Assembly (NCBI GenBank): GCA_905215335.1
Contig: CAJMPQ010000001.1
Span: 157,383-221,382 of the forward strand
Direction: 5' to 3'
Source of the DNA: an uncultured bacterium
GTDB taxonomy: Bacteria; Cyanobacteriota; Vampirovibrionia; Gastranaerophilales; Gastranaerophilaceae
Length of the DNA: 64,000 nt
This document shows, piece by piece, positions 1 to 59,134 of this stretch (position 1 is its first letter; every line of letters begins with the position of its first letter). Position numbers and translations under genes: made by a program. The notes below the pieces were generated by a model that saw only the letters and a program-made list of their open reading frames with translations, searched no databases and was not told where the DNA came from.

Positions 1-261
1 CGGATATAACTGAGCATCATATAATGAATATTTTTTATAATTGGCTCTAAAATCATTTGCAACCTTTAACGCTTCCTGAGGATTAAGATTAAATTTTTCA
101 GCCATTGATTTTTGCATTGGTGGCCCTACAAAAGTTTTCAAAATACTTTCTGAAGGCATTTCAAATCCATACTGCTCAATAGTTTTTTTTACAGCACTTA
201 TAACTCCAGATGTTGTATCCAAAAGAGTTCCATCTAAATCAAATAATATTGTATTATACAA
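1..261 (-). CDS. HAD-superfamily hydrolase, phosphoglycolate-phosphatase-like (N-terminal part only; gene runs off the window start)
   Basis: Not in the ORF track because there is no stop in the window. Reverse-strand translation from TTG (261-259): (M)YNTILFDLDGTLLDTTSGVISAVKKTIEQYGFEMPSESILKTFVGPPMQKS... This carries HAD motif I, DxDGT. GGAGG (complement of 269-273) lies 7 nt upstream. The start overlaps the stop of the upstream gene by 8 nt. Confidence 0.75.
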   Translation of the reverse strand, partial: MYNTILFDLDGTLLDTTSGVISAVKKTIEQYGFEMPSESILKTFVGPPMQKSMAEKFNLNPQEALKVANDFRANYKKYSLYDAQLYP

Positions 262-1870
262 TACTAACCTCCTTTTCTAAAACATCATTATATAAACTAT
301 CAGTTACAAAATTTACACTAATAGCACTTTGCAAATCTAATAACATTTCCTTTGTTTCTTTTGTTAGAAGCAATAAATCTTCTTTATTCGTTGTTGTTAC
401 TAAACTATTGTCATAATAATTAAGTTCACTGTTTTCTGAAAACCCATCGAATCCCGCAAAATTCACACTTTTCACACCCAGTTTAGCTAATAAGCGTAGA
501 ATTAAAATAGCAGAAGTATCAACATTTATCCAACCAAATTTAACAAGAGGAAGATAATTAAAAATCAATTCATTTGAATTTGATTCAGTTTTTATATTTG
601 ATGTCAATAATACCTTACATTCAAGATTTTTTGAAATTTCAGTATTCAAAAAATCTTGATATCTATTAATTCCACTAAAGAAAATATAATCCGATTTAAA
701 TTTATCTATATAATTATTTACCGAAATTATAATAGGATTTTTACATCTTATAAACTCTTCTATTTTATCTTTTTGAGAAGCTAAAGTCTTCCCAGGAACA
801 AGCAATAATATTTCACGATTTTTTAATTCTTTTGATAAAAACTCTAATGATCTTTTATCGTCAATCTCTCTATCAAAATGTTCTACATATATTTTTTCTA
901 ATAATTTATAATCATAAGCTTTCTTTTGCTTTTCATCTAAAGTTTCGATAATTGCTCTTAAATCTTTAGATTTGATATTATGTCGACGCAACAAATGATT
1001 AACATTAAACACATGAGAACTATGAACACCTGAAAGAAAATACGGAATACTATATCCCCATTCACATTCTTGTATAAACTTAGGCATTAAATAATCAATA
1101 ATATCCAACAATACATTAAGCTCATAATCTTGTCCGAATTTTTTATTTAAAAATTCGGACAAACACTCAGTATGAGCGTTTCCTGCGCCACGTCCACAAC
1201 CTAAAATTGAAGAATCTACATTAATTTCTCTACTATTTGATGCTAAATTTATAAATTCTTGAGTATTTGCATTTGCTAACATTAGGTTATTATGAGCATG
1301 AAACCCTAAAATAATTTCTTTATCTAAGTTATGATTTACTATTGAATAAATATGTCTTAGATCTTCAGCATACATAGCGCCAAAAGTATCTACAATCGAA
1401 TAAGCATAAGGTTTTAACTCATTAACTTTTTCTATAACTTCTAATAACTCAATATCAGAATAACTCATTGTATCAACATTTTGAAAAAATACTTTATAGC
1501 CTTTATCTTTTATAGCTTTTGCATATTCAAAAACTTCAAATCTTTCATCTTTTTTAAAACAAATTCTAATACCATCAATAGATTTACCATTATAATCAGA
1601 CAAATATTTTAAATCATATCTACCATAATCTACTAATGCAACATATAAAGTTCCTTCTTTTTTCTGTTGAAGATAAGGTTCAATTTCCTCAACATATTGA
1701 AAAATAGTACTATCCGGATTATGTGGTAAATTTTTCAAAAATCCACACTCTATAATATCAATATTTGAATTTTCCAAAGCATTGATGAACTTTTTTATAT
1801 AATTTTTACCTAGAACAAGCCCCTTAATTGGAGCTTCTCTCAAGGTACAATCCAACAAATTTATTTTCAT
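254..1870 (-). CDS. Fusion protein: N-terminal HMGL-like (pyruvate carboxyltransferase/aldolase TIM-barrel) domain plus C-terminal DUF115(MptE/Maf)- or GT42 sialyltransferase-like domain
   Basis: 538-aa ORF with ATG start. N-terminal half: MKINLLDCTLREAP..., GFHAHNN (HxH metal motif) and GCGRGAGNAHTE, typical of the HMGL-like family. C-terminal half: LLLVPGKT..., DYIFFS and TSAILILRLLAKLGVKSVNFAGFDGF, which resembles the CstII/DUF115 core motif. Confidence 0.6.
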   Translation of the reverse strand: MKINLLDCTLREAPIKGLVLGKNYIKKFINALENSNIDIIECGFLKNLPHNPDSTIFQYVEEIEPYLQQKKEGTLYVALVDYGRYDLKYLSDYNGKSIDGIRICFKKDERFEVFEYAKAIKDKGYKVFFQNVDTMSYSDIELLEVIEKVNELKPYAYSIVDTFGAMYAEDLRHIYSIVNHNLDKEIILGFHAHNNLMLANANTQEFINLASNSREINVDSSILGCGRGAGNAHTECLSEFLNKKFGQDYELNVLLDIIDYLMPKFIQECEWGYSIPYFLSGVHSSHVFNVNHLLRRHNIKSKDLRAIIETLDEKQKKAYDYKLLEKIYVEHFDREIDDKRSLEFLSKELKNREILLLVPGKTLASQKDKIEEFIRCKNPIIISVNNYIDKFKSDYIFFSGINRYQDFLNTEISKNLECKVLLTSNIKTESNSNELIFNYLPLVKFGWINVDTSAILILRLLAKLGVKSVNFAGFDGFSENSELNYYDNSLVTTTNKEDLLLLTKETKEMLLDLQSAISVNFVTDSLYNDVLEKEVSIV

Positions 1871-1880
1871 GAAACTCTCC

Positions 1881-2612
1881 TCACACTCTACAATTTCTGT
1901 TTGTCATAATCTGCGTTACTTTTTCTATATCGCGAGGATTATCAACAGAAATAGAATCTGAAGACACCTCTATACAATTTACAATTTTATGATTTTCAAT
2001 CCAACGAAGTTCGGCAATATCTTCTATTTGTTCAATTTCTCCCGGCTGAGTATTTACAAAAAAGTCAAGAGCGTCAATAGAAAAACCCTGAATTCCGATA
2101 ATCTTTTTATAATCAAACATTACACTCTTATGAGGACAAGGAACCGGATAACGAGACAAATAAACTAACTTGTTATCACTAATAACAACTTTAATATTTC
2201 CTGTATCCAATGTTTCTACTGGATTTTTCAATTTTCGATAAGAAAATAAATAATCTGCTTCAGTTTTAATAACTTCATCAACAACTGTCTTGATACATTC
2301 AGGCTCAATTAATGGTTCATCTCCATTTATCATAATATATCTATCTGCCTGTATTTTATGAACAACCTCATGCATTCTATAGAAACAATTCATATGATCA
2401 TTTCTAGTCATAAGAACATTAATGTTATATTTTTCACAAACTTCATAAATTCTTAAATCATCAGTAGCAACATAAACTTCATCCAATTCTTGCACTTGTT
2501 TAGCACTGTTATAAACCCAATAAATCATTGGTTTCCCACAGATTTCAGCTAATGGTTTTCCTGGAAAGCGGGTAGAACCATATCTAGATGGTATTATTCC
2601 AATTATTTTCAT
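1881..2612 (-). CDS. KdsB/NeuA-family cytidylyltransferase (CMP-ulosonic acid synthetase-like)
   Basis: 243 aa. MKIIGIIPSRYGSTRFPGKPLAEICGKPMIYWVY...VATDD...INGDEPLI matches the 3-deoxy-manno-octulosonate cytidylyltransferase pattern. Its ATG shares one base with the stop of the upstream gene (TAATG at 2612). Confidence 0.85.
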   Translation of the reverse strand: MKIIGIIPSRYGSTRFPGKPLAEICGKPMIYWVYNSAKQVQELDEVYVATDDLRIYEVCEKYNINVLMTRNDHMNCFYRMHEVVHKIQADRYIMINGDEPLIEPECIKTVVDEVIKTEADYLFSYRKLKNPVETLDTGNIKVVISDNKLVYLSRYPVPCPHKSVMFDYKKIIGIQGFSIDALDFFVNTQPGEIEQIEDIAELRWIENHKIVNCIEVSSDSISVDNPRDIEKVTQIMTNRNCRV

Positions 2613-3703
2613 TATTCAAACTCCCTTAATACTTTATCAATTATTTCATCACTTGTTAGTTCATCAGTATCATATTCTGAAATATTCTTCTGATTTACAT
2701 TTGGCAAATATTTCAAACTAAAAGCAAGAATATTTTCTCTAGCAGAACTGACAATATTACATTTAAATCTTGTATACAATATATGCTGAGGTACATTTAT
2801 TGTTGAAAGCACATCATTTAATCCACTTCTAAGTGAAATAATCCCCTTGGACATCTGAGCTAAATAATAGGTCTGTTCAATATCATATAATCCACAAACA
2901 CAATCGGGGATTTTCATTATGTCTGATGAAGAATTTATGAATATGTCATAACCTTTATCTCTTAAACGTTTACAGATTTCTACCCAAAAAGTTCTATCAT
3001 AACTACAATTACTTGAAGCTTCTGGGGAAATAAATATAAACTTATCAAGATTTAATCCAGAAAGTTCTAAATCTGCAAATAATTCATTTTTAGCTTGTTC
3101 TGAAACATGACATATTGTAGACTTGTTATAAAAATCAGCATAATACTTAGATAAATTTTTTACAAAAGAACAATCTTCAATAGGAGTATTACTATTATCT
3201 TTCACATTATTATGAATATCTAAAATTATTTGCTTATTAATATATGAAAAAAATCGTTTATTTTTATATGAAAAACCTTTATTTCCTATATCATTATAAA
3301 AAATTTCCAATGCTAAACGTTTATTGAAGTCTATTTTTTTACATTCTATGTTGGGAGAAAATAAATTAAAAACTTTTTTTGCATTATCATTTAAAACAAC
3401 TAAAACTGGTTTTTTAGAATTATTTTTCTTTACCCAATTTTCAAACATAAAACTTAAAATATATAAATCTCCAAGAGTAATCATTCTATATATATAGATA
3501 TCATCATAATCATCATTTAATTGTGATAAAATCCCATCAAAAAAAGTTTCTCTTACACCTTTTGATGGAAAAATATCAAAATATTTTTCATAAGCAGTCT
3601 TTTCACTAAATGTAAAATGTCTACAACCATATTCACAAATAGGCTTATCTAGCAAACGGATTTCTCTTTCTTTACCTATATCAATAATTTCAAATAATTT
3701 CAT
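2612..3703 (-). CDS. Hypothetical protein, possible GT-B (GT9 heptosyltransferase-like) glycosyltransferase
   Basis: 363-aa ORF inside the operon. The C-terminal part FIFISPEASSNCSYDRTFWVEICKRLRDKGYDIFINSS...SLRSGLNDVLSTINVPQHILYT resembles the GT9 donor-binding domain pattern. The match is weak. Confidence 0.35.
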   Translation of the reverse strand: MKLFEIIDIGKEREIRLLDKPICEYGCRHFTFSEKTAYEKYFDIFPSKGVRETFFDGILSQLNDDYDDIYIYRMITLGDLYILSFMFENWVKKNNSKKPVLVVLNDNAKKVFNLFSPNIECKKIDFNKRLALEIFYNDIGNKGFSYKNKRFFSYINKQIILDIHNNVKDNSNTPIEDCSFVKNLSKYYADFYNKSTICHVSEQAKNELFADLELSGLNLDKFIFISPEASSNCSYDRTFWVEICKRLRDKGYDIFINSSSDIMKIPDCVCGLYDIEQTYYLAQMSKGIISLRSGLNDVLSTINVPQHILYTRFKCNIVSSARENILAFSLKYLPNVNQKNISEYDTDELTSDEIIDKVLREFE

Positions 3704-3711
3704 AGTGCCTC

Positions 3712-5796
3712 TTATTTAATAAATAATAACTTTCTAAAACTGATTTCAAATCCGAGAAATCTCATATAAGCAATATTTCTGCTACGAATAATTTCTAAAT
3801 TAAATAAAAATTTTCTAATACTTCCATATTTTTTTCGAATATTTAATAACCTTTTCACAAATTTATCAGAACGAATATAACAAATATTTGGCAACTGTAT
3901 CTGACTATTGTCATATCCACAAACTAAATCTTTGACAGACAATACAGGTGCACATTTATATGTTCTTTTTTCTATACCGTAATAATTTGAAAATGGTATT
4001 TCACCAATAAGCTCAGCAGTTTCTAAATCCGGATTTCCTGTTATGTAATCAAAATAAAATAAAAAAGGCTTCAAATTTGGAACACTATTAGGAGTATTGC
4101 TAAGAATTTTATAAAATGTTTGACAGAACAAAATTTCACCTTCCAACACCTTATCATACTCGTATTCTTCTAAAGCTTTTCCTTCTAAATCTTCCATAAC
4201 AGGAACAATTTCCCCATTAGTTTTATTATATGAAACCGTAGCTCCGCAAAGAGATCTACAAAATAACTCCATTTGAGATCTTATTTTCGGAGATGAATAA
4301 AATGAAACCATTTCAAAATTTGGTGATAAAACTTTTAATGGATTAAATTGAGAATAAAAACTTGTTATTTTTATATCAGAAAATGTTTTTATAAGATTTA
4401 CCAGACAATTTTGAGTTCTACCACTAGCAGCTAAATCTACTAAGGCCAATTTATTATCCGACAAATCTATTTCTTGTTTTATATATTGAATTAAATAATT
4501 TCTTTGCTCTGAATTTGATTTTATAACTAAATCCAAAAATTTTGAATTGGCAGAAAGAATGCCTGATAATTCTGTTAATTCTTCTCTATTATAAGGTCTC
4601 GTATAATCTTTAAATTTTTGAGGAATTAATTTTATTAATTCACCTTTATCAACATGAAATCTTGCTGCTATTCTATCAATAGTATTAATTTCTCTTGCTG
4701 AAGCAAACATAAAACTAATGTCAGGATTTTCGTATGTAATAGAAGGTGCTCGCCAAGCCTCTCTTGAACCATACAACAGTTTTGTTTTTATATCTAAACC
4801 TTTTTCTTTAATTAAAACATCACACATTTGTTTTAAAACATAACCATCTCTCATAACAAAATATAAACGATTTATACCTCGCTTAATACTTTGCTCTATG
4901 ACCCAGTTAACATATGGATATAAAATAACTCCACCCATAGAAACACCTAAATTAAACTTTTCATTTCTTTTATAAAAATTCCTAATATTTTTTGCCGTAC
5001 CAACAGCTAATTGTACATATACATCTTCTGGATATCTTCCCAACAAACGTTTTTCATACTCTTTTAAATTTACATAATTATATTTTTCCGACTTAATTCC
5101 AATTCTATTTGCAGCTTTAATATCAGAATTCAAATTATCACCAATATGTATCCATTTTTGTACTTCAATATGCTCTTTTTCTTGAACATATTTAAACAAA
5201 TCCCCAGATCCTTTCATGCATCTACACTCTGAAGATACATAAATTGGAATATTTTTAAAAATCTCATTTTTATCAGTTAAAAATTGCCTTAATGTTTCTG
5301 AAGAATGATAAATATCAGAAATAAGTATAACTCTATATCCTGAGCTTATAGCACTCTTAACTCGTTCAATATTTTCTGGTATACCTATTAAATTCTTTCT
5401 TTCGGTACTAATTTCAAAATTTTTTAATAAAAATTTTTCATCATCAGAAAGTGCATAATTTTTTTGAATATAATCATATATTTCATCTAAAGTTATTTCA
5501 TTAATTCCATGAAAGGCATAGTGTTTACGTAAAAAAGCTTCGCTCTCCACTCTAATAATATAAAAATTTTCTCTAACATATTTATCAATTATTGAAAAAG
5601 ATACATTATCTTTTAATTCTTTTTGCATCAACGCAAAAATACCTTTAGGCACAGCAGTTGTACGAGTTAACAATGTATCAAATACATCAAAAGAAATTAC
5701 TTCCGTTAAAGTATTTTTTATTTTATTTTGTTCCAACTGAAGCATTTTCAACCAAACCTTTCTCAAAAATTTCACCATTTTCAGTAATATACTCAT
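3712..5796 (-). CDS. HAD-like hydrolase domain fused to a roughly 440-aa domain of unknown function
   Basis: 694-aa ORF. HAD motif I is VISFDVFDTLLTR and there is a later GDNLNSD motif. The C-terminal two thirds are unrecognised. The start is ambiguous: in-frame ATGs lie at 5796, 5778 and 5745, none has a clear SD, and all overlap the 3' end of the upstream gene (stop at 5723). Confidence 0.6.
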   Translation of the reverse strand: MSILLKMVKFLRKVWLKMLQLEQNKIKNTLTEVISFDVFDTLLTRTTAVPKGIFALMQKELKDNVSFSIIDKYVRENFYIIRVESEAFLRKHYAFHGINEITLDEIYDYIQKNYALSDDEKFLLKNFEISTERKNLIGIPENIERVKSAISSGYRVILISDIYHSSETLRQFLTDKNEIFKNIPIYVSSECRCMKGSGDLFKYVQEKEHIEVQKWIHIGDNLNSDIKAANRIGIKSEKYNYVNLKEYEKRLLGRYPEDVYVQLAVGTAKNIRNFYKRNEKFNLGVSMGGVILYPYVNWVIEQSIKRGINRLYFVMRDGYVLKQMCDVLIKEKGLDIKTKLLYGSREAWRAPSITYENPDISFMFASAREINTIDRIAARFHVDKGELIKLIPQKFKDYTRPYNREELTELSGILSANSKFLDLVIKSNSEQRNYLIQYIKQEIDLSDNKLALVDLAASGRTQNCLVNLIKTFSDIKITSFYSQFNPLKVLSPNFEMVSFYSSPKIRSQMELFCRSLCGATVSYNKTNGEIVPVMEDLEGKALEEYEYDKVLEGEILFCQTFYKILSNTPNSVPNLKPFLFYFDYITGNPDLETAELIGEIPFSNYYGIEKRTYKCAPVLSVKDLVCGYDNSQIQLPNICYIRSDKFVKRLLNIRKKYGSIRKFLFNLEIIRSRNIAYMRFLGFEISFRKLLFIK

Positions 5797-6817
5797 TATT
5801 CTTAGAGTAAATATCTACAAATAATCCTTTTAATCCCACAGGATTTACTGACACAATTTCAACATCAGGATACATCTGTTCAACAAATTCTTTAAACTTC
5901 TGATATCCCCAAGTCTTACCGGAATTATCCCCAGCTATACAACCTTCTTTCATTTCTATTTTTTCAGCTTTATAAAAATATCCTTTATTACAATCTTGTC
6001 CAACAAGAAAAATTCTTTTTGGATGAGCATAAAGTATAAATTGAAGAGCTGAAAAAACAGCACCTCCAAAATCTCCAAAAGGCTCATTGTCAATATCCAC
6101 AGCCCATTTATTGCCAAAAACATCTTCTAACAAAAATGGGGTTGCTTCAGCATTATAAATATGATACTGAGGAATTCTATCTACTAGAATTCTTTCCCTA
6201 ATTCTATTAACTTGTCTATGAGGCAATATTGCATAAAACTTCTTACAAAAACCTTTACCATACGCATCCAAACGCTCATTCATTTGTTTATTTGCTATCA
6301 TATGGTCATGCACAAATAAATAGTCTAACTTAACATTTTCTAAATTTATTGCACCATTTACACCAACTTGAATAGCATCCTTAATATAAATATAATCTTT
6401 AACTGATGGACCTGCACCATACAACACAACATCCTTGCCCTCAAAAGCCCTTTTATATGGTAAAAATGGCCTATGTAAATTTTGAACCTGATTTAAAACC
6501 TGCATATTAACAAAAACATCATCAATACGTCTTAAAATACGAGATTGAGAGTCACTTAATTTTATTAATTCATTACATATTTGTTTTTGAGTATTTTCAA
6601 CAATCTCTTTAATTTTATAATTTTCGTCGTACTTTTTCCAAACTTGAATTCCTATTAAATAATATTTCTTCAACGACTTATTTGATTTAATTTTAAACAA
6701 ACCAACCAAATATGATTTTACTTTAAATCCAAATCGATATTTTTGCTTATAAATTGTAATTCCTAAGATTTTTAAAACTTTTTCATTTTTAAAATTTTTA
6801 TATGAAAATATTTGCAT
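5723..6817 (-). CDS. DUF115 (MptE/Maf)- or GT42 sialyltransferase-like putative glycosyltransferase
   Basis: 364 aa counted from ATG 6817; the track start at 6820 is a TTG. GAGAGG lies 6 nt upstream. Motifs: VVLYGAGPSVKDY (GxGPS), DYLFVHD, and GGAVFSALQFILYAHPKRIFLVGQD (compare Campylobacter CstII TSGVYMCAVAIALGYKEIYLSGID). Confidence 0.5.
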   Translation of the reverse strand: MQIFSYKNFKNEKVLKILGITIYKQKYRFGFKVKSYLVGLFKIKSNKSLKKYYLIGIQVWKKYDENYKIKEIVENTQKQICNELIKLSDSQSRILRRIDDVFVNMQVLNQVQNLHRPFLPYKRAFEGKDVVLYGAGPSVKDYIYIKDAIQVGVNGAINLENVKLDYLFVHDHMIANKQMNERLDAYGKGFCKKFYAILPHRQVNRIRERILVDRIPQYHIYNAEATPFLLEDVFGNKWAVDIDNEPFGDFGGAVFSALQFILYAHPKRIFLVGQDCNKGYFYKAEKIEMKEGCIAGDNSGKTWGYQKFKEFVEQMYPDVEIVSVNPVGLKGLFVDIYSKNNEYITENGEIFEKGLVENASVGTK

Positions 6818-6846
6818 CAAATACCTCTCAATATTCTATAATCTCT

Positions 6847-8034
6847 TTAATCATCTAATTCTCTTGGATAAGCAAATAATACCGTGCCATAAATATGCAT
6901 AGATTCCGAAAAATGAGAATCTATATGAATTGAATAATCCAAATTTTGAACAATATTATCTAATAAGATTTTCGTTTCAAAGAATTCTTCTGCAGAATGA
7001 TAAATAGCAAAAGATAAAACCGGACGATTTTCTTGAATGGTATTAACCATACCTTTTAAAGCCTGAAACATTGCCCCTTCAATATCCGCTTTTATAAAAC
7101 CAATAGAATTCTCAATTTTTTGGACATAACTATCTAATATAATAGTTTTTACAAATTCCCCATTACCATTATAAATTTTTTTACCCATATCACCATTATT
7201 ATTTATTTTTACTGATGCACATTCCGAAGATAAACCACATGTATTTATTACATATTTATATTCAGGAACATCATTCAAACGCATTGTATGCTTATAATTT
7301 TCAACATGTTCTTGTGAAATTTCAAAAGAATGAATTTTATTTGGATTATATTCTAACAATACAAGAGCACTATCACCAATATAAGCACCAGCATCAATAA
7401 AATCTTTATTTTTTATATAATTAATAATTTTAGAATTTGCATATTTTAATCCATGATGGTATAAAAAAACTTCCATATCATAGTTTTGTTTAGATAATTT
7501 ATATTCAGATTTAATTCTTGCAAAATTCTCAGATAATAACTTTGAATACATTTTGTCTTGTTCTGTATCATATTTCAATCTATAACCGTTGAAATCCAAG
7601 TTACATAACTTTGCTAAAGATTCATCCGGAAGCCTTAACATTTTATCAATAACAATATTTGTAATCTTCAATGATTTACTATCCAAATTTTTTTTAAATA
7701 GCTCTATTTTTTCAACCATATTATTTTCAATAAAATAATTTCTAAAAGATCCATTTATAGAATCAATGAGGCCCCACGCTTTCTTATTTATAAATTTTTC
7801 GCAAAATAAATTAATCTTATTTAATTTTTGAGTTTGTTGCTCTACGATTTTATTTAAATCTTCAAAATTATTATTAAGTTGTAAAACACATTTACGTTCT
7901 TCTGCCAACTCAAACAATATAACTCTATACAACAACTTAAGATTAGTAAATTTAAGTTTTATACCAAGTATTGTTATAACTTTATGATTCCCAATATTTG
8001 TAACTGAAAAAATAAATTGTAAAATCTTTTTCAA
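6847..8034 (-). CDS. FkbM-family methyltransferase with an N-terminal coiled-coil/unknown extension
   Basis: 395 aa. TTG start with AAGGAGG immediately upstream, and no in-frame ATG nearby. FIDAGAYIGDSALVLLEYNPNKIHSFEISQEHVENY is the FkbM (Methyltransf_21) SAM-binding pattern. Confidence 0.7.
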   Translation of the reverse strand: MKKILQFIFSVTNIGNHKVITILGIKLKFTNLKLLYRVILFELAEERKCVLQLNNNFEDLNKIVEQQTQKLNKINLFCEKFINKKAWGLIDSINGSFRNYFIENNMVEKIELFKKNLDSKSLKITNIVIDKMLRLPDESLAKLCNLDFNGYRLKYDTEQDKMYSKLLSENFARIKSEYKLSKQNYDMEVFLYHHGLKYANSKIINYIKNKDFIDAGAYIGDSALVLLEYNPNKIHSFEISQEHVENYKHTMRLNDVPEYKYVINTCGLSSECASVKINNNGDMGKKIYNGNGEFVKTIILDSYVQKIENSIGFIKADIEGAMFQALKGMVNTIQENRPVLSFAIYHSAEEFFETKILLDNIVQNLDYSIHIDSHFSESMHIYGTVLFAYPRELDD

Positions 8035-8150
8035 GTTACCTCCTTAAACAAATACCCAAAAACTTATTTCCCAGTTGCTTCAAATTTAGACAAAACAAGT
8101 AAAAAAAGATATTAGCCAAGTGGGTATATTAAATACTACAAAAACTTCTG

Positions 8151-8159
8151 TGATATAAT
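8151..8159 (+). promoter_or_regulatory. Candidate extended -10 element (TGaTATAAT) upstream of the 8247 gene
   Basis: TGATATAAT lies 88 nt upstream of the ATG in a 212-nt divergent intergenic region. AT-rich background makes chance matches likely. Confidence 0.3.
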
Positions 8160-8246
8160 ATTAATCCACCATCTTGTATAAAAATTTATTTAATTAATAC
8201 TCAAAAAAATTTTTCACGGATTTTATAACAGAATGAAGGATTAAAT

Positions 8247-20877: not shown

Positions 20878-22152
20878 ATGCCATCAACAGTAAAAAATAT
20901 TCATGCTCGTCAAATTCTTGATTCTAGAGGAAATCCAACTATAGAAGTTGATGTGATGCTTTCAAGCGGAGAAGTTGGAACAGCCTCTGTACCATCAGGA
21001 GCATCAAAAGGTAAATTTGAAGCAATAGAATTAAGAGATAACGAAGATGAATACGATGGTAAAAGTGTCCGCAAAGCAATCTACAATGTTAATAAAATTA
21101 TAGCTCCTGTACTGATTAACCAAAACATATCAAATCAAGCATTTATAGATAAAACACTAATTGAACTTGATGGAACTGAAAACAAAGGAACTCTTGGTGC
21201 AAATGCAATGCTAGGGGTATCTATGGCTTGTGCAAGAGCAGGCGCTTCTTCATACAAACTACCATTATACGAATATTTAGGTGGTATTTTTGCAAAAACA
21301 ATGCCTGTACCAATGATGAACATTTTAAATGGTGGAGTTCATGCAAATAACAATTTAGAATTTCAAGAATTTATGATTGCACCCGTTGGTGCAGAAAATT
21401 TCACGCACGCACTTGAAATAGGTGCAGAAATTTTTTATGAATTAAAAAAAATACTGACCAAACAAAAATTATCAACAAACGTTGGAGATGAAGGTGGATT
21501 TGCTCCAAACATCAGCACAAATACAGATGCAATAAAACTTGTTATTGATGCCATAGAAAAAACAGGATATTCAACAGACAAAGTAAAAATTTGTCTTGAT
21601 ATAGCAGCAAGCGAATTTTATAACAAAGGAAAATATTTTATTAGAGGATATGGATATTCAACAACAGAATTTATAGAAATTCTTGAAAAAGTAATAACAA
21701 CATTTCCTATAATTTCAATAGAAGATCCATTAGCACAAGACGACTTAGAAGGTTGGGCTACACTTACGAGGAAAATAGGAAGCAAATGTCAACTAGTAGG
21801 AGATGATCTATTTGTTACCAATATAAAACGTATAAAAATGGGAGTTACTAAAAAACTTGCCAATTCAGTACTAATAAAACCAAATCAAATTGGCACAATT
21901 TCAGAAACAATAGATGCAATTACCTATGCACAAAAACATTGCTATACAACAATAATTTCTCACCGCTCAGGTGAAACTGAAGATACATTTATTGCAGATT
22001 TAGCTGTTGCGTCTAATAGTGGCCTTATAAAAACAGGTTCAATTTCTCGCAGCGAAAGAGTAGCAAAATATAACAGACTTTTAAAAATAGAACAGCACCT
22101 TGGAAATAATGCCAAATACCTCGGTTATGATGCTTTTAACCCTAAAAATTAG
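20878..22152 (+). CDS. eno: Enolase
   Basis: IHARQILDSRGNPTIEVDV...SGASKG..EA.ELRD...IKPNQIGT..E...SHRSGETED: a full-length 424-aa enolase pattern. Confidence 0.97.
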   Translation: MPSTVKNIHARQILDSRGNPTIEVDVMLSSGEVGTASVPSGASKGKFEAIELRDNEDEYDGKSVRKAIYNVNKIIAPVLINQNISNQAFIDKTLIELDGTENKGTLGANAMLGVSMACARAGASSYKLPLYEYLGGIFAKTMPVPMMNILNGGVHANNNLEFQEFMIAPVGAENFTHALEIGAEIFYELKKILTKQKLSTNVGDEGGFAPNISTNTDAIKLVIDAIEKTGYSTDKVKICLDIAASEFYNKGKYFIRGYGYSTTEFIEILEKVITTFPIISIEDPLAQDDLEGWATLTRKIGSKCQLVGDDLFVTNIKRIKMGVTKKLANSVLIKPNQIGTISETIDAITYAQKHCYTTIISHRSGETEDTFIADLAVASNSGLIKTGSISRSERVAKYNRLLKIEQHLGNNAKYLGYDAFNPKN

Positions 22153-22238: not shown

Positions 22239-23294
22239 ATGAAAATGATTATAATAATGGAACCCCAGGCTACTGCTGAAAACATTAAAGCAGTTACAGA
22301 ATTATTAAAAGAACACGGATTTAAAGTTATAGTTCATAAAGGTGATGTACACACTGTAATAGATGCACTAGGCGATAAAACCACATTATCTCCGAATAGA
22401 ATTGACGCAATGGATGGTGTGAAAAAAATTAAATTTATAAGAGAACCATTTCGTTTAGCATCAAGAGATAGAAAATCAGAAGATACAGTTATTGAATTTG
22501 ACAATGGAGTGAAAATAGGTGGAGCAAACAGACCAGTATTTATGGTTGGACCTTGCTCAGTAGAAGATAACTACGAAGGTTTATTAGAAGTTGCAATTGC
22601 AGCAAAAGAACTTGGATGCCAATTTCTAAGAGGTGGAGCTTTCAAACCTAGAACTTCACCTTATGAATTTGATGGATTGGGAGAAAAAGCTCTTAAATAT
22701 CTTGCACAAGCAAAAGAAGAAACCGGCCTTCTCGTTGTAACAGAACTTATGGATTCAGCGGATTTGGAATTAGTATGCAATTATGCAGATGTAATTCAAA
22801 TCGGTGCAAGAAATATGCAAAATTTCAAATTACTAAAAGCTGTAGGTAAATGTAACAAACCAATTATTCTAAAACGTGGACCTGCAAGTACAATTAGAGA
22901 ATTTTTACTAGCTGCTGAACATATTATGTACAACGGAAACGAAAAAGTTATACTATGCGAACGTGGTCTAAAGAGTTTTGATAGTGCATTTACAAGAAAT
23001 CTATTAGATATTTCAGCAATTCCGGTAATAAAAAAATATTCACACTTACCAATAATTGTAGATCCTAGCCATGGAACAGGACAAAGATACTTAATTGAAC
23101 CAATGGCTAAAGCTGGCTTAGTAGTAGGGGCTGATGGTGTAATGGTAGAAGTACACCATAATCCGGCACAGGCATTAAGTGATGGAAAACAGAGTCTATC
23201 AATCCCTCAATTCAAAGAAGTATTTACAAAATTAAATAATTTAATTGACACACTTCATCTTGAAAAAAGTCTTACTATTTCTAACCTTGAATAG
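22239..23294 (+). CDS. 3-deoxy-7-phosphoheptulonate (DAHP) synthase, type I-beta, with an N-terminal regulatory domain
   Basis: Core pattern GPCSVE....LRGGAFKPRTSPY.F.G....GL..L.....E.GL.VVTE...IGARNMQNF.LL......KP..LKRG...DPSH. A roughly 70-aa N-terminal ferredoxin-like extension resembles Thermotoga-type enzymes. The start may be ATG 22245. Confidence 0.9.
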   Translation: MKMIIIMEPQATAENIKAVTELLKEHGFKVIVHKGDVHTVIDALGDKTTLSPNRIDAMDGVKKIKFIREPFRLASRDRKSEDTVIEFDNGVKIGGANRPVFMVGPCSVEDNYEGLLEVAIAAKELGCQFLRGGAFKPRTSPYEFDGLGEKALKYLAQAKEETGLLVVTELMDSADLELVCNYADVIQIGARNMQNFKLLKAVGKCNKPIILKRGPASTIREFLLAAEHIMYNGNEKVILCERGLKSFDSAFTRNLLDISAIPVIKKYSHLPIIVDPSHGTGQRYLIEPMAKAGLVVGADGVMVEVHHNPAQALSDGKQSLSIPQFKEVFTKLNNLIDTLHLEKSLTISNLE

Positions 23295-25438: not shown

Positions 25439-26584
25439 ATGGATAGATTAGAATTTATTAATGCAAAACGTATAGTTATAAAATTAGGAACAAATGTTTT
25501 AAGAAATGATGAAGGATATGTTTCTTTACCAAGAGTATATTCATTCATTGAAGATATCGCAACTCTTGTAAAATCAGGTAAAGAAGTTATTATCATCACT
25601 TCAGGTGCTGTAGGACTAGGCAAAAAACGATTAGGACTTGAAAATACTCAAGGTACAGCACTAAAACAAGCTTGTGCTGCAATTGGACAAGGAAAATTAA
25701 TGTCAATTTATGAAAATGGATTTGACACTTACGGATTAACCGCAGCACAAATATTATTAACAGAAGACGACTTTTCAGTTCGCCAAAGATACTTAAGTTT
25801 AAGAACCACATTCAACAAACTATTAGAACTTGGTGCAATTCCTGTAATAAATCAGAACGATACAGTTTCAACACTTGATGTTGCACTAAGATATATTCAA
25901 GAAGATATGCAAGTTTGTTTCTCTGATAATGATAAATTATCAGCTTTAGTAGCAAGTGAATTAGATGCAGATTTATTAATAATATTATCAGATATAAACG
26001 GATTATATGATGATAATCCTAAAAATAATCCTGATGCAAAATTAATAAAATCAGTTCCGGAAGTTAATGATGAAATTATGGCATTAGCATCTGGAGTTTC
26101 TGATGGCGGTCGTGGCGGTATGGAAACAAAATTAAAAGCCGCAAGACTTGTAACCAGATTTGGCGGTAAAGTTCTTATTGCTAACGGAAAAGAACCTTTT
26201 ATTATCAGACGCATATTTAGTGGCGAAGATTTAGGTACTATGTTCTTACCGCAAAAAGAAAATTTATCTGATAAAAAACGTTGGATTGGATATGCTACAA
26301 ATATTATCGGAAAAATTATTGTAAACGATGGAGCTAAAAAAGCTCTTCTTGCAGAAAAGAGTTTATTACCAATCGGTGTTATTGGAGTAAAAAATTCCTT
26401 CCATAAAGGTGATGTTATATCAATCCTTGATGAAAAGAAAAAAGAATTTGCTAGAGGTATTGTAAATTACGATTCTGACTCTTGCAAAAAACTTATAGGT
26501 AGCCACTCTGATAACATTGTAGAAATTTTAGGATTTAAAAACTACGATGCAATTATTACCCGAGATAATATAACTATTTTATAG
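25439..26584 (+). CDS. proB: Glutamate 5-kinase (with C-terminal PUA domain)
   Basis: RIVIKLGTNVL...IITSGAVGLG...FSDNDKLSALVA...LLIILSDINGLY...GGMETKL, plus a PUA-like C-terminus. 381 aa. Confidence 0.93.
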   Translation: MDRLEFINAKRIVIKLGTNVLRNDEGYVSLPRVYSFIEDIATLVKSGKEVIIITSGAVGLGKKRLGLENTQGTALKQACAAIGQGKLMSIYENGFDTYGLTAAQILLTEDDFSVRQRYLSLRTTFNKLLELGAIPVINQNDTVSTLDVALRYIQEDMQVCFSDNDKLSALVASELDADLLIILSDINGLYDDNPKNNPDAKLIKSVPEVNDEIMALASGVSDGGRGGMETKLKAARLVTRFGGKVLIANGKEPFIIRRIFSGEDLGTMFLPQKENLSDKKRWIGYATNIIGKIIVNDGAKKALLAEKSLLPIGVIGVKNSFHKGDVISILDEKKKEFARGIVNYDSDSCKKLIGSHSDNIVEILGFKNYDAIITRDNITIL

Positions 26585-26592
26585 GATTTAAT

Positions 26593-27849
26593 ATGGAACA
26601 AAATTTTATTGATATTGCTAAAAATGCAAAACAAGCTTCTTTAAAAATAGCTGAACTTGATACTAACTTAAAAAATCAAGCATTAATAAAAATTGCAGAT
26701 ACATTTGAAACTCATAAATCTGAAATTTTTGAGGCAAATAAAAAAGACTTAGATGAAGCTGAAAATTTAGTACAAACTGGCGAAATAACTAAAGCAACAT
26801 TTAATCGTTTAAAACTTGATGAAAACAAAATGCGAGATATGATTCAAGGTGTTAGGGACATTGCTAATCTAGAAGATCCTATCGGTAAAAAACTTTTTGT
26901 TAGAGAATTAGACGAAGGTTTGGTATTAAATAAAGTATCTTGTCCTATAGGTGTTTTAGGAATTATATTTGAAGCAAGACCAGATGTTATCTCACAAATT
27001 TCATCTTTAGCAATAAAATCATCTAATGCGGTTATTCTAAAAGGTGGTAAGGAATCTAAAAATACAAATAAAAAGATTTTAGAAATCATAAATTCTGCAT
27101 TAGATACTATTGAAGGATTTCCTAAAAATGTTATACAACAAGTATTTTCAAGAGATGATGTAGCAGAAATGCTAAAATGCGATCAATACATTAACTTAAT
27201 TATTCCTAGAGGTGGAAATAAATTAGTTAAATATATAAAAGAAAATACAAAAATACCAGTCCTAGGCCATGCAAATGGAATTTGCCATATATTTGTTGAT
27301 AAATCTGCAGATATTGATATGGCATCAAAAATAGTAATTGATGCAAAAACACAATATCCAAGTGCTTGTAATGCAGTTGAAACATTACTAATTCATAAAG
27401 ATTTTTCAAAAGCAGATGAACTTTTAGCTTCATTACAATTATCAGAAATAAAATTAGTTTCTAATCCTGAAGCTTGGGACATTGAATATGGAGACAAAAT
27501 CTTATCTTATAAATTTGTAAATGATATTGATGAAGCAATCGAACACATAAATACATACGGTTCTGGGCATACAGATTGTATCATTACAAAAGACGTACAA
27601 AATGCTGAAAAATTCATGAACAATGTTGATTCAGCTGGAGTATATTTAAATGCATCAACAAGATTTGCTGACGGCTTTAGATACGGTTTCGGTGCAGAAG
27701 TAGGAATTTCTACAAACAAAACACATGCCAGAGGTCCTGTTGGTTTAGAAGGATTAACAATATATAAATACAAATTATTAGGAAACGGTCATATAGTTGA
27801 CGATTATGCTAAAGGAATAAAACAATTTCATCACAAAGACTTAGCATAA
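26593..27849 (+). CDS. proA: Glutamate-5-semialdehyde dehydrogenase
   Basis: PIGVLGIIFEARPDV....LAIKSSNAVILKGGKES...CNAVETLLIH...GSGHTD.I.T...NASTRFADG..YGFGAE.GIST.K.HARGP. It lies 8 nt after proB. Confidence 0.93.
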   Translation: MEQNFIDIAKNAKQASLKIAELDTNLKNQALIKIADTFETHKSEIFEANKKDLDEAENLVQTGEITKATFNRLKLDENKMRDMIQGVRDIANLEDPIGKKLFVRELDEGLVLNKVSCPIGVLGIIFEARPDVISQISSLAIKSSNAVILKGGKESKNTNKKILEIINSALDTIEGFPKNVIQQVFSRDDVAEMLKCDQYINLIIPRGGNKLVKYIKENTKIPVLGHANGICHIFVDKSADIDMASKIVIDAKTQYPSACNAVETLLIHKDFSKADELLASLQLSEIKLVSNPEAWDIEYGDKILSYKFVNDIDEAIEHINTYGSGHTDCIITKDVQNAEKFMNNVDSAGVYLNASTRFADGFRYGFGAEVGISTNKTHARGPVGLEGLTIYKYKLLGNGHIVDDYAKGIKQFHHKDLA

Positions 27850-29568: not shown

Positions 29569-32500
29569 ATGAGAATATTTAATATAAATATATTTAATCC
29601 TAATTTTAAAGGACAAAGACAAGATAGAAAATCAGTTGCTCAATTAAAACAAGAAAATGCTTATGATTTGAATGTTCCAAATCAAAGAAAAATTAATGAA
29701 GCCATAAATAGATTGGCTACAGTTCCAGGTGAAGATAATGCTAAGTTTTTAATGGATGTAGCAGAGAACTTACAATATGGTACTAATATAGATTTAGAAG
29801 GGAAAAAATCTTATAATGACTGGCAAACTAAATTACGTAACGCAACTGAAAACTCATTAGCACTATCTGATAAATCTGTTCAAGAAAAATTAAGTGAAAA
29901 CTTCAATACTACATTCTCAACACAAAAACCTCTAACAAATACAGAAAAGGAAATTCTTGCTCAACGCAAGTCATTACTCGAAAAAGTAAATCCTGAAGAT
30001 CTTGAAAATATCAAAAACCCAAATATCAAAAATCTTAAAAGAAACTTAGATTATTTAATTGTTTCATCAGAAGTTCCAACATCTCAAAAACTATATATTC
30101 TTAAACGATTAAACTATTTTATGAGTCCGGAATATAAAATAAATGAACAATTAAAAGATAAAAAAACTCAAGCTTTAGCAGAAATGGTTAATGACTTAGT
30201 AGTTAATACACCAGAATCAAAAATCCCAAACATTAAAGCTATTAACCAAAGAGGGCATGGTATTTGTGCAGCTATTTCTATTTGTAGAAAAGCTTTAGCA
30301 TATGAAGATAAACCAAATTATGTTGATATGATTTTATCTGAACTTGATAATAGTAATGAACTTCAAGTTTATGATATTTCAAAATTAGGTTCACATACAA
30401 AAATTCCTATTGACAAAATATATATAGATTTTGATTACGCACTATCTAAAGGATATAGAATTGTAGATACATCAGCAATGTATTGGATGAATGTTGCAGA
30501 TACTGCAGGCCCTAAAAATAATCCTATAGGTTCATATAGTCCTTTTGACAAAAGCAATTTCGATACATTCAATGATGCTCATATAATTAAAGATATTAGT
30601 AATGAATTAGTAAATCAACATGATTATTTCAGAAGCCTTGTAAAAGCTAAAGAAGCATTAGTTAGAGCTAAAAAATCTAAACTAAAAGACTCTATATCAC
30701 CTAAAAACAATAAAGACTTAGCTGAAAATAATCTAGAATTGATTCAAGCTTATAGAAAAGATTTAGTGAATATATTAAAATCAATTTCACCAAATTTATC
30801 AAACAATACAGCTTACGAAATTCTTAGAGATTTGGAAAATCTTGAAGTTCCAACATCTCAAAAACTTAATGAAATTAAGGATTATAAAAAAGACTTTTCA
30901 TACTTACCAAATGAAACAACTAATAGTAAACTTGAAAAAATAAAAGCATTTTTAAGCATTAGTTTACCTAAAGGTACTGATTCTGATAAAATTCAATCTA
31001 TTGCACCTGATGTAATAGATATTACAGATAAAATAAAAGAATACCAACCTGAAGATAAATCATCTATAGCTGCACGAAATATAAACAGAGCAAAATTACT
31101 ATATAATGCTGCTGCAGCTTATAGAACTCAACAAGTTTTCCAATTAGATATTCCAGAAAGACGACTTGATATGATGGAAAGTTTAAATATTTCCGACGAC
31201 GAAACTCGTATTCTGGAAAACATGGATAAATTAATTAAAAAATTAAATAAAAATGAAATAAACCCTGAACTAAGAAGCCGCTTAGCTAAAAACTTTGAGT
31301 CATCAGAAGACAATTTAGAATTAGCCGAAAAATTAAAAAATAACCGAGATACAGTTGAATACATATTAACTGATATAATGGATGATTTATATAAAACTTG
31401 TTTATCAGTAAGTAGAAAAAATGTATTGCTAAATGAATTAAAAGGCTTGCAAGAAGCAATGCTAACTAATCCTGAAGAAGAAACTATAATAGAGTTGGCT
31501 TCAAGATTACAAGTAAAAGAAAATCCAAAAATAATAGCTGAAGAATTACAACACGATATAGAAAGTCTTGAAGCTGAAGACTGTACAAATGAAAAATATA
31601 TCAAACTTTATAATAAATACGGACACAAATCTCAGCTAATAGATTTTAAAAATACAATTGAACGACTCGCAAGTATCATATTTGATGAAAAGAATCAAAC
31701 TATAATAAGAGGTTTTAATGCAATAAATGGTGCCAACCCTGATGCGCCAATGGAAGTTACTACTGAAATATTTAATACAATTGCTCAAAATTTCAATAAT
31801 ATTTCAGGGCTAATCAATGGTTATCAGCAAGCACTAAAAATCATTGATGATAATAATAATATCTTAAACACTACAGATTCTAAAGAAATCATTCTAAAAA
31901 AATTAGAAAACATGGGTGAAATCCCTACAGTAAAAGAACTAAAAACATTACAAGACCATTTTACAAGAATTGATCAAGCTAAAGCAAATAATGAAAATCT
32001 AAAATTAAAAGATTTACCTACTGAATTAACAAGCTTGTCAAAATTTGAAAAAGAAATTCTAAAAAAATATGAATACAACATTAATAGCTGGTATTCAATG
32101 ACAACAAGACGCTTAGACGCTCAATATAAAGAAATTAAAGAACCGCTAAATGAATTAAATAGAGAAATCGGTGTTCAAACAGGAAACAGATGGGTTAGCT
32201 CTGAAGGTCATAGCGGACTTAACTCTCGTCAACAAGTTAAAATTATCGAACACATGACTGACCGTCCATACTATATTGAATATGACGGGAAATTAGCTCT
32301 AAATAAAATTAAAGAATCACCATATTCAGGTATATCCTCAACATCAGTACTTCATACTGAACCAGCTTGGCACGCACAATATATCGTTGATGTAAAACCA
32401 ATAACAATAAATAACAATGGACAAAAAGAAGTAAAAGATACTATAGTTCATGATAACACTTGGGGCGCTGCGGAACACGAAAATACTTGGATTGATGAAA

Positions 32501-57882: not shown

Positions 57883-58269
57883 ATGAAAAGAATTTTAATT
57901 GTCGATGATGTCCCTGGTTGGATAAGATTTCACAAAAATAATATTGAATATCTAAATCTTCCCGACTTAGATATAGATACAGCGAATTCTGCAAATGAAG
58001 CTTTGTCAAAAATTGAAGCTTCCATTGATGAACCTTTCGACATAATTTTCACAGATTTACAAATGGAAAGCAATTATCTACCAATGCTGGCAGGAGAATG
58101 GCTTGTTCAACAAATTAAAACATACAAAGAATATAAAAATAATAAAATAGTTATAGTTTCAGCTTCACCTTCCATACAAAGAATTGCGGAAAGAAATGAT
58201 GTTTTATATTTACCTAAAACAATTGCTAGAAATTCTGATGCTGAAATATATAAACAATTTCTTAACTAA
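57883..58269 (+). CDS. Stand-alone response-regulator receiver (CheY-like) domain protein
   Basis: RILIVDDVPGW (acidic pocket), IIFTDLQM (phospho-acceptor Asp), SASPS and YLPK (conserved Lys). 128 aa with no output domain. Confidence 0.7.
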   Translation: MKRILIVDDVPGWIRFHKNNIEYLNLPDLDIDTANSANEALSKIEASIDEPFDIIFTDLQMESNYLPMLAGEWLVQQIKTYKEYKNNKIVIVSASPSIQRIAERNDVLYLPKTIARNSDAEIYKQFLN

Positions 58270-59023: not shown

Positions 59024-59134
59024 AGTCAAATATTATCATAAAAAATAGCTAATATAACAATATACAATTATCATCATGGATAATTTATTTTTAAATTTAA
59101 TATCCTAACATGATTTTGTCGAGAGGAGATTTCA

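Follow-up and report, generated by a model that had tools for sequence, protein, structure and literature searches.

The first 8034 nucleotides of a 64,000-nucleotide stretch from a Gastranaerophilaceae assembly (GCA_905215335.1, contig CAJMPQ010000001.1; the whole stretch is hereafter the window) hold a packed operon with a KdsB-family cytidylyltransferase, and this locus raises the question of how the sugar to be activated is made. To our knowledge, every established route to 3-deoxy-D-manno-octulosonate (Kdo) and to sialic, pseudaminic, and legionaminic acids uses phosphoenolpyruvate (PEP)-dependent synthases of the KdsA/NeuB type, and the operon encodes none. Next to the cytidylyltransferase lies a 538-amino acid (aa) fusion of an HMGL-type aldolase to a C-terminal α/β domain. 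With moderate confidence we propose an aldolase-based route to a phosphorylated 3-deoxy-2-ulosonic acid, followed by dephosphorylation, activation with cytidine monophosphate (CMP), and transfer by a DUF115/Maf-type protein. The logic of such a pathway is known; the enzyme proposed for the synthase step is new, and the sugar probably is too.

The region comprises seven open reading frames (ORFs), six complete and one truncated, and the ORF listing and translations place every one of them on the minus strand. They are given here in the order of transcription (PRPP, phosphoribosyl pyrophosphate), with the two parts of the fusion listed separately below the whole:

6847..8034, minus strand: FkbM-family methyltransferase with an N-terminal extension of ~200 aa (395 aa); first gene of the operon
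5723..6820, minus strand: divergent MptE-like/DUF115 protein (365 aa), candidate CMP-sugar transferase by profile and hhalign comparison
3712..5796, minus strand: HAD phosphatase followed by a PRPP-dependent ribofuranosyl-5-phosphate transferase, predicted to be of the Bcs3 CrpP-CriT type (677-694 aa)
2612..3703, minus strand: orphan protein, possibly a glycosyltransferase (363 aa); no family match
1881..2612, minus strand: KdsB/KpsU-family cytidylyltransferase (243 aa; CTP_transf_3)
254..1870, minus strand: whole ORF of the 538-aa fusion, aldolase plus C-terminal domain
890..1870, minus strand: HMGL-type TIM-barrel aldolase with a helical DmpG-communication-like region (fusion residues 1-327)
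254..883, minus strand: C-terminal α/β domain of the fusion, SteA/thiamine-pyrophosphokinase-like (residues 330-538; stop codon at 254-256 included)
1..261, minus strand: N-terminal 87 codons of a 220-aa HAD-IA phosphatase, an ORF truncated at the 5' end of the window, whose edge cuts the gene

This layout agreed with an earlier reading of the DNA letters (hereafter the sequence-only reading), which had described seven co-directional, packed genes. The fusion and HAD genes overlap by 8 nt (254/261), a 1-nt overlap lies at 2612, and the stop at 5723 falls inside the longest reading of the next gene (ORF start 5796; the start called in the close relative L001, described below, corresponds to 5745). 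The other intergenic gaps in the operon measure 8-26 nt.

The aldolase domain passed the gathering cut-off of the HMGL-like family (PF00682) with 58.3 bits against 29 (E 1e-15), and its best NCBIfam match was PRK08195, 4-hydroxy-2-oxovalerate aldolase, over residues 5-304. The closest solved structure by sequence was PDB 3dxi (E 7.5e-23, 24% identity), followed by the DmpG-type aldolases AmnG (8ih7) and 4lrs, then by homocitrate synthase 6ktq and DmpG (1nvm), and then by isopropylmalate synthase. When an AlphaFold model of the whole fusion (predicted local distance difference test, pLDDT, of 85) was compared by Foldseek, the order was similar, with 3dxi and DmpG-type aldolases first. Models of acyl-CoA-dependent HMGL synthases scored 17-43 bits against cut-offs of 413-748 and stood below the aldolases in both the sequence and the fold ranking. 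The domain had been taken for a pyruvate-type enzyme, and these rankings support a placement nearer to the DmpG-type pyruvate aldolases than to the acyl-CoA-dependent synthases. Residue conservation was examined in 23 homologues of 50-86% identity. The LDCTLREAP motif, whose unusual DCTLREAP core had drawn attention to the domain, was invariant, as were H191 and H193; since D7 and R11 lie within the motif, the Asp/His/His metal site and the Arg are intact. All four residues align with those of DmpG-type enzymes. Position 283 aligns with the GVYSS Tyr of AmnG; the window protein has His there, and several homologues have Tyr. The GVYSS Tyr and the His of the RDGxH motif have catalytic roles known from the BphI/DmpG literature. 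A partner acylating aldehyde dehydrogenase (DmpF) was found neither in the operon nor among the recurrent neighbours. Judged by its residues, the HMGL domain resembles a pyruvate aldolase whose acid/base set has changed.

The gene neighbourhoods of the fusion carry the argument further. The family gave more than 5000 database matches, with a near-uniform length of ~535-540 aa among the 120 listed, and occurs in 336 GTDB species representatives; the closest named relatives are metagenome-assembled genomes (MAGs) of Candidatus Gastranaerophilales (65-86% identity), and the source of the window is most likely a gut-dwelling member of this non-photosynthetic lineage of cyanobacteria. We fetched 85 loci, called and clustered their ORFs, and annotated the cluster representatives; context counts refer to genes at most three positions from the fusion in the 81 loci from GTDB species. 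The comparison of neighbourhoods that the sequence-only reading had called for placed a cytidylyltransferase within this distance in 49 of the 81 loci. The following contexts were counted (ThDP, thiamine diphosphate; CDP, cytidine diphosphate):

24 loci: cytidylyltransferase (KdsB-like or NeuA/PseF-like) with a KdsC-family phosphatase (TIGR01670, 165.6 versus 107)
14 loci: cytidylyltransferase with HAD-IA phosphatase and AraD, the window's own type
6 loci: cytidylyltransferase with HAD-IA phosphatase only
4 loci: cytidylyltransferase only
~22 loci: acetolactate-synthase-like ThDP enzyme, usually with glucose-1-phosphate cytidylyltransferase, 4,6-dehydratase-type, and RfbH-type genes (CDP-dideoxyhexose set)
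8 loci: none of the named contexts

A HAD-IA phosphatase was present in 20 of the 49 cytidylyltransferase loci, 14 of these with AraD. The order cytidylyltransferase-aldolase-phosphatase, with its stop/start overlaps, is kept from Campylobacter to Melainabacteria, and P0044 (755 aa), a family member with HAD domains, is a natural aldolase-HAD triple fusion. Cytidylyltransferases of the KdsB/NeuA type, phosphatases of either the KdsC type or HAD-IA, and separate DUF115/Maf-type proteins are all linked to the fusion across phyla.

A look-up with the exact sequence of the window's fusion protein returned no record, and the 99%-identical P0001 was taken in its place; it lies on a 324-kb contig of GCA_964326415.1 (locus L001). 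Because window positions 1-11870 align with L001 end to end and without gaps at 99.25% identity, that locus is a fair proxy for the flank missing from the window. Beyond the window edge it shows the complete 220-aa HAD gene, which bears out the truncated phosphatase seen in the window, and then a 235-aa gene of the class II aldolase family (AraD-like); with the remainder of the HAD gene and the AraD-like gene, the operon therefore has nine genes. Past the AraD-like gene, a flavodoxin-like protein, a porin, and a formate/nitrite transporter are encoded on the opposite strand. The absence of a canonical synthase, remarked on from the window alone, held for this flank as well, with no KdsA/NeuB-type gene in the operon or in the 10 kb past position 1. 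Among the 85 related loci, phmmer with the window's 3-deoxy-D-arabino-heptulosonate 7-phosphate synthase (DAHPS) as query returned no KdsA/DAHPS-like ORF, and in a scan of the recurrent neighbour clusters NeuB was not among the families. The DAHPS itself (22239-23294, plus strand; 9e-76) is the only gene of the DAHP_synth_1/KdsA superfamily in the window. It was rejected as a hidden KdsA, since it has an N-terminal ferredoxin-like regulatory domain and lies in a separate housekeeping stretch with enolase (20878-22152) and proB/proA-like genes (25439-27849); chorismate synthase is encoded at 56237-57307. We read it as a probable enzyme of aromatic amino-acid biosynthesis outside the glycan operon.

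The enzymes encoded around the aldolase were compared with known families. The 243-aa protein matched CTP_transf_3 at 8e-42, as expected for the KdsB-family cytidylyltransferase recognised earlier, and passed the NCBIfam KdsB subfamily model PRK05450.1-5 (215 against a cut-off of 193); it fell below the equivalog TIGR00466 (134 against 155) and below PRK13368 (230 against 255). Its best PDB match was the E. coli entry 1gq9 (9e-43), which we take to be capsule-specific KpsU. The HAD-IA phosphatase had NCBIfam matches of the PGP/PpaX type. The 235-aa protein of L001 passed models of L-ribulose-5-phosphate 4-epimerase (PRK12348, 349.7 against 331; PRK08193, 349.6 against 257) and fell below the equivalog TIGR00760 (344 against 389).

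The C-terminal domain of the fusion had been described as a sialyltransferase/DUF115-like domain, and this assignment was not supported. Because Foldseek with the whole-protein model returned TIM-barrel matches only, residues 330-538 were modelled separately (AlphaFold2, pLDDT 87). The only significant matches in the PDB were SteA entries 9hmz/9hmy (E 6e-5 to 8e-4; template modelling (TM) score ~0.5); no Maf or CstII structure was among the top 50, and no Pfam match was obtained at E<=1. The likeness to DUF115 is remote: hhalign aligned the domain with the 365-aa family motif to motif (probability 88%, E 3e-6) and gave a probability of 0.8% with a validated MptE-like set. A SIS-type sugar-phosphate isomerase identity, which would have supplied the missing ketose-to-aldose step, was dropped at E 0.04-0.08 and a TM-score of ~0.28, versus ~0.5 for SteA. 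The paper on the SteA structures likens this part of SteA to the thiamine pyrophosphokinase ATP site and, less strongly, to the CstII CMP site (PMC12977500). A profile of the domain found 1280 cluster representatives among 1.84 billion; in complete proteins the domain occupies residues ~330-540 of ~535-aa chains and is almost exclusively attached to the aldolase, and the longer chains among those listed (687 and 751 aa) keep it at the same position and carry extra C-terminal residues. In four loci (L030, L032, L039, and L040), a 336-347-aa aldolase ends exactly at the linker and the domain is absent; in the last three the cassette is otherwise unchanged (KdsB-like, HAD-IA, AraD). A 302-aa neighbour was rejected as an in-trans version of the domain in the short-aldolase loci (hhalign probability 0.1%). 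In L032 and L040 the cassette also includes a 395-aa DUF115-like protein, and the 363-aa orphan is present twice. The contigs of L032, L039, and L040 are binned as Akkermansia/Phocaeicola, with 61-63% identity to the Melainabacteria protein, and may be mis-binned or horizontally acquired. The nearly exclusive attachment to the aldolase and the four loci without the domain make a transferase role doubtful. As modelled, the domain is a dedicated, separable companion of the aldolase with a nucleotide-binding-type fold.

Three observations lead us to infer that the HMGL domain makes a phospho-ulosonate from pyruvate: the recurrent order of cytidylyltransferase, aldolase, and phosphatase; a phosphatase that is of the KdsC family in one lineage, of the HAD-IA type in another, and physically fused in a third; and the failure to find a canonical synthase, Gram-positive hosts included. 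The aldolase-based ulosonic route put forward by the sequence-only reading was thus partly supported, by the cross-phylum linkage to cytidylyltransferases and phosphatases without KdsA/NeuB, and it lost the fused transferase. The catalytic steps, the substrate of the aldolase, the sugar, and the acceptor that we infer would be as follows. An AraD-type epimerase, encoded outside the window, would supply L-ribulose-5-phosphate from the pentose-phosphate pool. The HMGL domain, acting as a metal-dependent DmpG-type aldolase, would join pyruvate to a phosphorylated carbonyl compound derived from the pentulose phosphate; the product would be a phosphorylated 3-deoxy-2-ulosonic acid, and this reaction would replace the PEP-dependent KdsA/NeuB step. 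The translationally coupled HAD phosphatase would then take off the phosphate, the KdsB/KpsU-like enzyme would form the CMP-sugar, and the separate 365-aa DUF115-like protein would transfer the activated sugar. The CrpP-CriT-like protein would add ribofuranose from PRPP, and the FkbM enzyme would methylate. A (cytidine) nucleotide is the most likely ligand of the fused C-terminal domain, which would serve the aldolase step through regulation or substrate handling rather than as a transferase. There is about an even chance that the nine-gene operon, taken as a whole, builds and transfers parts of a surface glycan with ribofuranose and an O-methylated, CMP-activated acidic keto-sugar. Other contexts of the fusion fit the product class: directly upstream of it, three ThDP-type loci have genes for a 3-dehydroquinate (DHQ) synthase-like protein and an FGGY sugar kinase. 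The substrate of DHQ synthases is a 3-deoxy-ulosonate phosphate, and ThDP enzymes of this kind act on 2-oxo acids, so both the DHQ-synthase-like and the ThDP neighbour would suit an ulosonate. AraD here and the FGGY kinase elsewhere point to a pentulose-5-phosphate precursor.

Several points weigh against this pathway. No enzyme of the operon turns a pentulose phosphate into an aldose, and DmpG-type aldolases normally take aldehydes, so the electrophile is unexplained; the options are a direct addition to the ketone, which would give a branched Kdo isomer, a small aldehyde such as glycolaldehyde phosphate, or an isomerase encoded elsewhere in the genome. The aldolase domain scored far below the cut-offs of its nearest families (63.4 against 229 for PRK08195; 56 against 286 for TIGR03217), and the catalytic His of the DmpG motif RDGxH is replaced by Ile15 (motif REAPI). 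The host is Gram-negative (a porin is encoded nearby in L001) and may hold housekeeping Kdo genes elsewhere, and the operon lacks export, initiation, and polymerase genes. The pairing of the fusion with a ThDP enzyme and CDP-dideoxyhexose genes in ~22 of the 81 loci means that the family may not have one function. These loci include L023, L026, L027, L029, L048, L073, L078, and L082, with RfbF-, RfbG-, and RfbH-like genes, and in only one of the ~22 does a KdsB-type gene lie within three genes of the fusion. This context suggests that a branched or extended sugar is made there, with the ThDP enzyme meeting either the aldolase product or a CDP-keto-sugar. Finally, our literature search found no experimental work on the aldolase-fusion family and no paper that characterises it; the nearest mention was an unannotated "putative 4-hydroxy-2-ketovalerate aldolase" in a novel Campylobacter jejuni capsule locus (PMC9858101). 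A paper on Bacillus coahuilensis KdsB, followed as a lead, concerned canonical Kdo genes.

The ThDP loci also bear on a different function, in which the fusion tailors a nucleotide-linked sugar: the C-terminal domain would hold a CMP- or CDP-sugar while the HMGL domain adds a pyruvate-derived C3 unit to a keto group, giving a branched or extended acidic sugar. A cytidine nucleotide is common to all three contexts, through the KdsB/NeuA-like enzymes in 49 loci and through glucose-1-phosphate cytidylyltransferase with CDP-dideoxyhexose genes in ~22, and the C-terminal domain combines a fold of the phosphonucleotide-binding type (Foldseek; PMC12977500) with its near-exclusive attachment to the aldolase. 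In the ThDP context the obvious ketone electrophile would be CDP-4-keto-3,6-dideoxyhexose. This compound belongs to the established RfbF/G/H pathway. The KdsB contexts, however, hold no other enzyme able to make an ulosonic acid for the KdsB-type enzyme, the coupled or even fused phosphatase (KdsC-type or HAD-IA) fits a free sugar-phosphate product better, and four loci keep the aldolase in an otherwise identical cassette without the domain that would hold the nucleotide. We regard the tailoring of a nucleotide-linked sugar as unlikely.

We consider it improbable, too, that the KdsB-like gene is a second, glycan-specific CMP-Kdo synthetase drawing on housekeeping Kdo from KdsD/KdsA/KdsC, so that the glycan would be an ordinary ribofuranose-Kdo polymer; the fusion, HAD, and AraD proteins would then make an unrelated part, for instance a ketopentose or a small substituent of the hydroxy-keto acid kind. 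E. coli and Kingella have well-known capsules of ribofuranose and Kdo, and the best structural match of the cytidylyltransferase (1gq9, taken as KpsU), the ribofuranosyl transferase in the operon, and the Gram-negative host with its nearby porin would all suit such a polymer. Against it, 24 loci from mostly Gram-positive hosts pair the cytidylyltransferase and the fusion with a KdsC-family phosphatase and have no KdsA, the gene order and its overlaps persist between Campylobacter and Melainabacteria, and the 243-aa protein misses the KdsB equivalog cut-off noted above. It is very improbable that the HMGL domain is an acyl-CoA-dependent synthase with Claisen chemistry, like the homocitrate, isopropylmalate, and citramalate enzymes, which would attach an acetyl unit to a keto compound and so give a branched hydroxy-acid: the matches to 6ktq (7e-8) and 3eeg (2e-6), fold TM-scores akin to those of the aldolases, and the loss of the DmpG catalytic His would allow it, but 3dxi and DmpG-type aldolases come first in every ranking, the match spans the DmpG-specific helical region to residue 304 with GV(Y/H)SS included, and a branched hydroxy-acid has no anomeric centre for a KdsB-type enzyme.

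If the pyruvate-aldolase route is taken up again and extended to the family, the HMGL::SteA-like fusion could tentatively be seen as a third, non-homologous class of ulosonic-acid synthase, pyruvate- and metal-dependent and of the DmpG type. Its product might be an undescribed acidic keto-sugar made with a unit that derives from a pentulose-5-phosphate. Activated with CMP, this sugar might be displayed by Campylobacter on its capsules, by abundant gut Lachnospiraceae (Roseburia, Eubacterium) on their wall polymers, by Lysinibacillus on its flagellin, and by Melainabacteria. Genome mining for ulosonic sugars relies on KdsA/NeuB markers, to which such a route would be invisible. The cassette occurs in hundreds of species. 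One of them is a food-borne pathogen, where it lies in the capsule locus, a region of importance for serotyping and for conjugate vaccines; others are dominant commensals of the human gut, and the surface glycans of these bacteria influence how the immune system recognises them. Four components, namely the aldolase fusion, the phosphatase, the cytidylyltransferase, and the DUF115-type protein, form a directly testable enzyme set and a possible handle on the sugar.

The glycan loci around the cassette differ among lineages. The HAD-IA/AraD-type cassette adjoins kpsC/kpsS-type capsule genes in Campylobacter coli. Downstream of the cassette in three C. coli loci (L003-L005) lie genes for adenosine 5'-phosphosulfate kinase, ATP sulfurylase, and a pyruvate-kinase-like protein, and then kpsC/kpsS, which hints at a sulfated capsule component in this strain. 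The KdsC-type trio occurs in mostly Gram-positive Lachnospiraceae, Eubacterium, and Roseburia together with CDP-ribitol-type genes, in teichoic-acid-like loci. Upstream of the KdsB-like gene in L025, L028, L037, L052-L057, L059, L068-L070, L084, and L085 is a ~700-aa TagF-MptE fusion (Lachnospiraceae, Roseburia, and Eubacterium), in which a TagF-like CDP-glycerol/ribitol phosphotransferase (Glyphos_transf, 4e-100) is joined to an MptE-like domain whose match (2e-9) exceeds the Pfam threshold; by their domains these proteins are candidate bifunctional polymerases for a polyol-phosphate/ulosonic-acid wall polymer. In Lysinibacillus boronitolerans (L021, 6543-13507), the order is a 969-aa, Maf-sized protein with an MptE-like domain (3.5e-36), a KdsC-like protein, the aldolase fusion, a KdsB-like protein, and a class I methyltransferase; here the aldolase cassette may form the basis of a locus of the flagellin-glycosylation type. 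Methyltransferases recur as well, of the FkbM family here and in several loci, of the TylF type in L014, and of the Methyltransf_23 family in L021.

Among the other products of the operon, the large protein described as a HAD-domain fusion retained its HAD domain, and its partner was corrected to a PRPP-dependent ribofuranosyl transferase, which assigns the protein to a recently described ribofuranosylation machinery. In a phmmer search of the PDB, residues 28-624 of the 694-aa reading aligned with residues 378-983 of Bcs3 (9h50/8a0c) at E 1.6e-50, and the ribofuranosyl transferase of Thermobacillus composti (7shg) matched at E 1.8e-14. In Bcs3, the HAD phosphatase CrpP spans residues 374-591 and the PRPP-dependent ribofuranosyl-5-phosphate transferase CriT residues 592-1036, and D386, D680, and E818 are residues that matter (PMC10299916). 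Conserved in the window protein are FDxFDT, R-D, and, where Bcs3 has E818, an acidic residue (Asp). Because of this two-domain homology and the conserved CrpP/CriT residues, the 694-aa protein is predicted to add ribofuranose from PRPP and to remove the 5-phosphate, as an enzyme of a known kind. The 395-aa FkbM protein matched Methyltransf_21 at 6e-9 (residues 214-367) and TIGR01444 with 57.5 bits against a cut-off of 37.7, as its earlier naming as an FkbM methyltransferase would predict. For the 365-aa protein, called GT42/DUF115-like, only the second half of the name found support. Its match to MptE-like (PF01973) had E 0.002 and 18.4 bits, below the gathering score of 34.6; members of its family matched nearly the whole profile at 1e-7 to 3e-3, and when the family was compared by hhalign with the MptE-like domains that Pfam validates in the TagF-MptE fusions, the probability was 97.4% (E 1.6e-11). 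It accompanies the cassette in 13 loci, C. coli included. A GT42 assignment was rejected both for this protein and for the C-terminal domain of the aldolase fusion, as neither had a Pfam CST-I match. The 363-aa orphan had been called GT9-like, a label that no Pfam, NCBIfam, or PDB sequence match upheld. It has 34 homologues among 5.8 billion proteins, the two with named sources being from Gastranaerophilales and a "Cyanobacteria bacterium" MAG, and the only Pfam domains among them come from one weak 633-aa match with GT2 domains; the orphan is possibly a glycosyltransferase.

A short N-terminal motif, K-V-x-x-I-L-G-I, is common to the FkbM protein (HKVITILGIKL, residues 18-26) and the DUF115-like protein (EKVLKILGITI, residues 14-22). 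The 365-aa protein contains further look-alike stretches, as does the 694-aa protein close to its C-terminus; the motif may be a docking or membrane-association element. The operon block has a G+C content of 26-27% and a strong negative GC skew. A scan found no terminator-like site within region 1-8034, a result of little weight alone in such AT-rich DNA, and a promoter scan gave 58 sites versus 61 expected, which is uninformative in DNA of this composition. Divergent from the operon across a 212-bp spacer is a gene for a 795-aa Asn/Lys-rich protein without a family match (8247-10634, plus strand). Homologues of 51-59% identity stand in the same position beside the cassette in MAGs L006-L008, one labelled Gastranaerophilales, and a link of this protein to the glycan, as acceptor or regulator, is possible. 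Elsewhere in the window, a second HMGL-like ORF (58262-59029, minus strand; 255 aa) matched only the C-terminal part of the Pfam profile (157-246 of 260) and may be a mis-started or truncated gene of the leuA/cimA type. Four large ORFs had no Pfam match at E<=1e-5:

29569-35475, plus strand: 1968 aa
42555-44225, plus strand: 556 aa
52854-54905, plus strand: 683 aa
60656-62407, minus strand: 583 aa

The proposed pathway has its logic and two of three enzyme families in common with the Kdo pathway (KdsA-KdsC-KdsB) and with the related routes through the 9-phosphates of keto-deoxynonulosonic acid (KDN) and N-acetylneuraminic acid (Neu5Ac), which consist of a synthase, a HAD phosphatase, and a CMP-synthetase. 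The enzyme that forms the C-C bond is encoded beside a KdsB-family cytidylyltransferase and a phosphatase, the latter from the KdsC family in 24 related loci and of the HAD-IA type here. The C-C bond-forming enzyme would, however, be an HMGL TIM barrel with an extra domain of the nucleotide-binding type rather than a PEP-dependent enzyme of the DAHPS/KdsA/NeuB fold, and the precursor is apparently L-ribulose-5-phosphate (AraD), whereas the Kdo pathway uses D-arabinose-5-phosphate (KdsD). With DmpG, BphI, and AmnG the aldolase shares the TIM barrel, a metal site of Asp and HxH, the N-terminal motif's Arg, and the helical C-terminal communication region with GV(Y/H)SS. It differs from them in having no partner acylating dehydrogenase, in the replaced His of RDGxH (REAPI), in a communication region that runs into a fused Rossmann-like domain, and in its setting, a biosynthetic glycan locus instead of aromatic catabolism. 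BVU_2661 of Bacteroides vulgatus (3dxi) shares the DCTLR motif and, as the title of the entry ("N-terminal domain of a putative aldolase") shows, continues into an additional C-terminal part in its native form; the entry comes from structural genomics, has no assigned function, and reads RDGG where the fusion has REAP.

SteA is the sole significant structural match of the C-terminal domain (TM ~0.5 over ~200 columns), at 13-15% sequence identity and with unrelated partner domains; the ligand of SteA itself is uncertain, stabilisation by guanosine and uridine diphosphates having been reported (PMC12977500). Likeness to Maf/DUF115 (PF01973) resides in the 365-aa protein, a divergent PF01973-type protein with a GAGPS motif that is half the size of Maf and sub-threshold in Pfam, whereas the aldolase C-terminal domain matched SteA instead of Maf or GT42 (CstII) and had no Pfam match. 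The 694-aa protein resembles Bcs3, the capsule polymerase of Haemophilus influenzae type b, and 7shg in that both the phosphatase and the transferase domains align and the key residues are kept; unlike Bcs3, it lacks the TagF-like CroT and SH3b parts and stands alone in a different glycan context.

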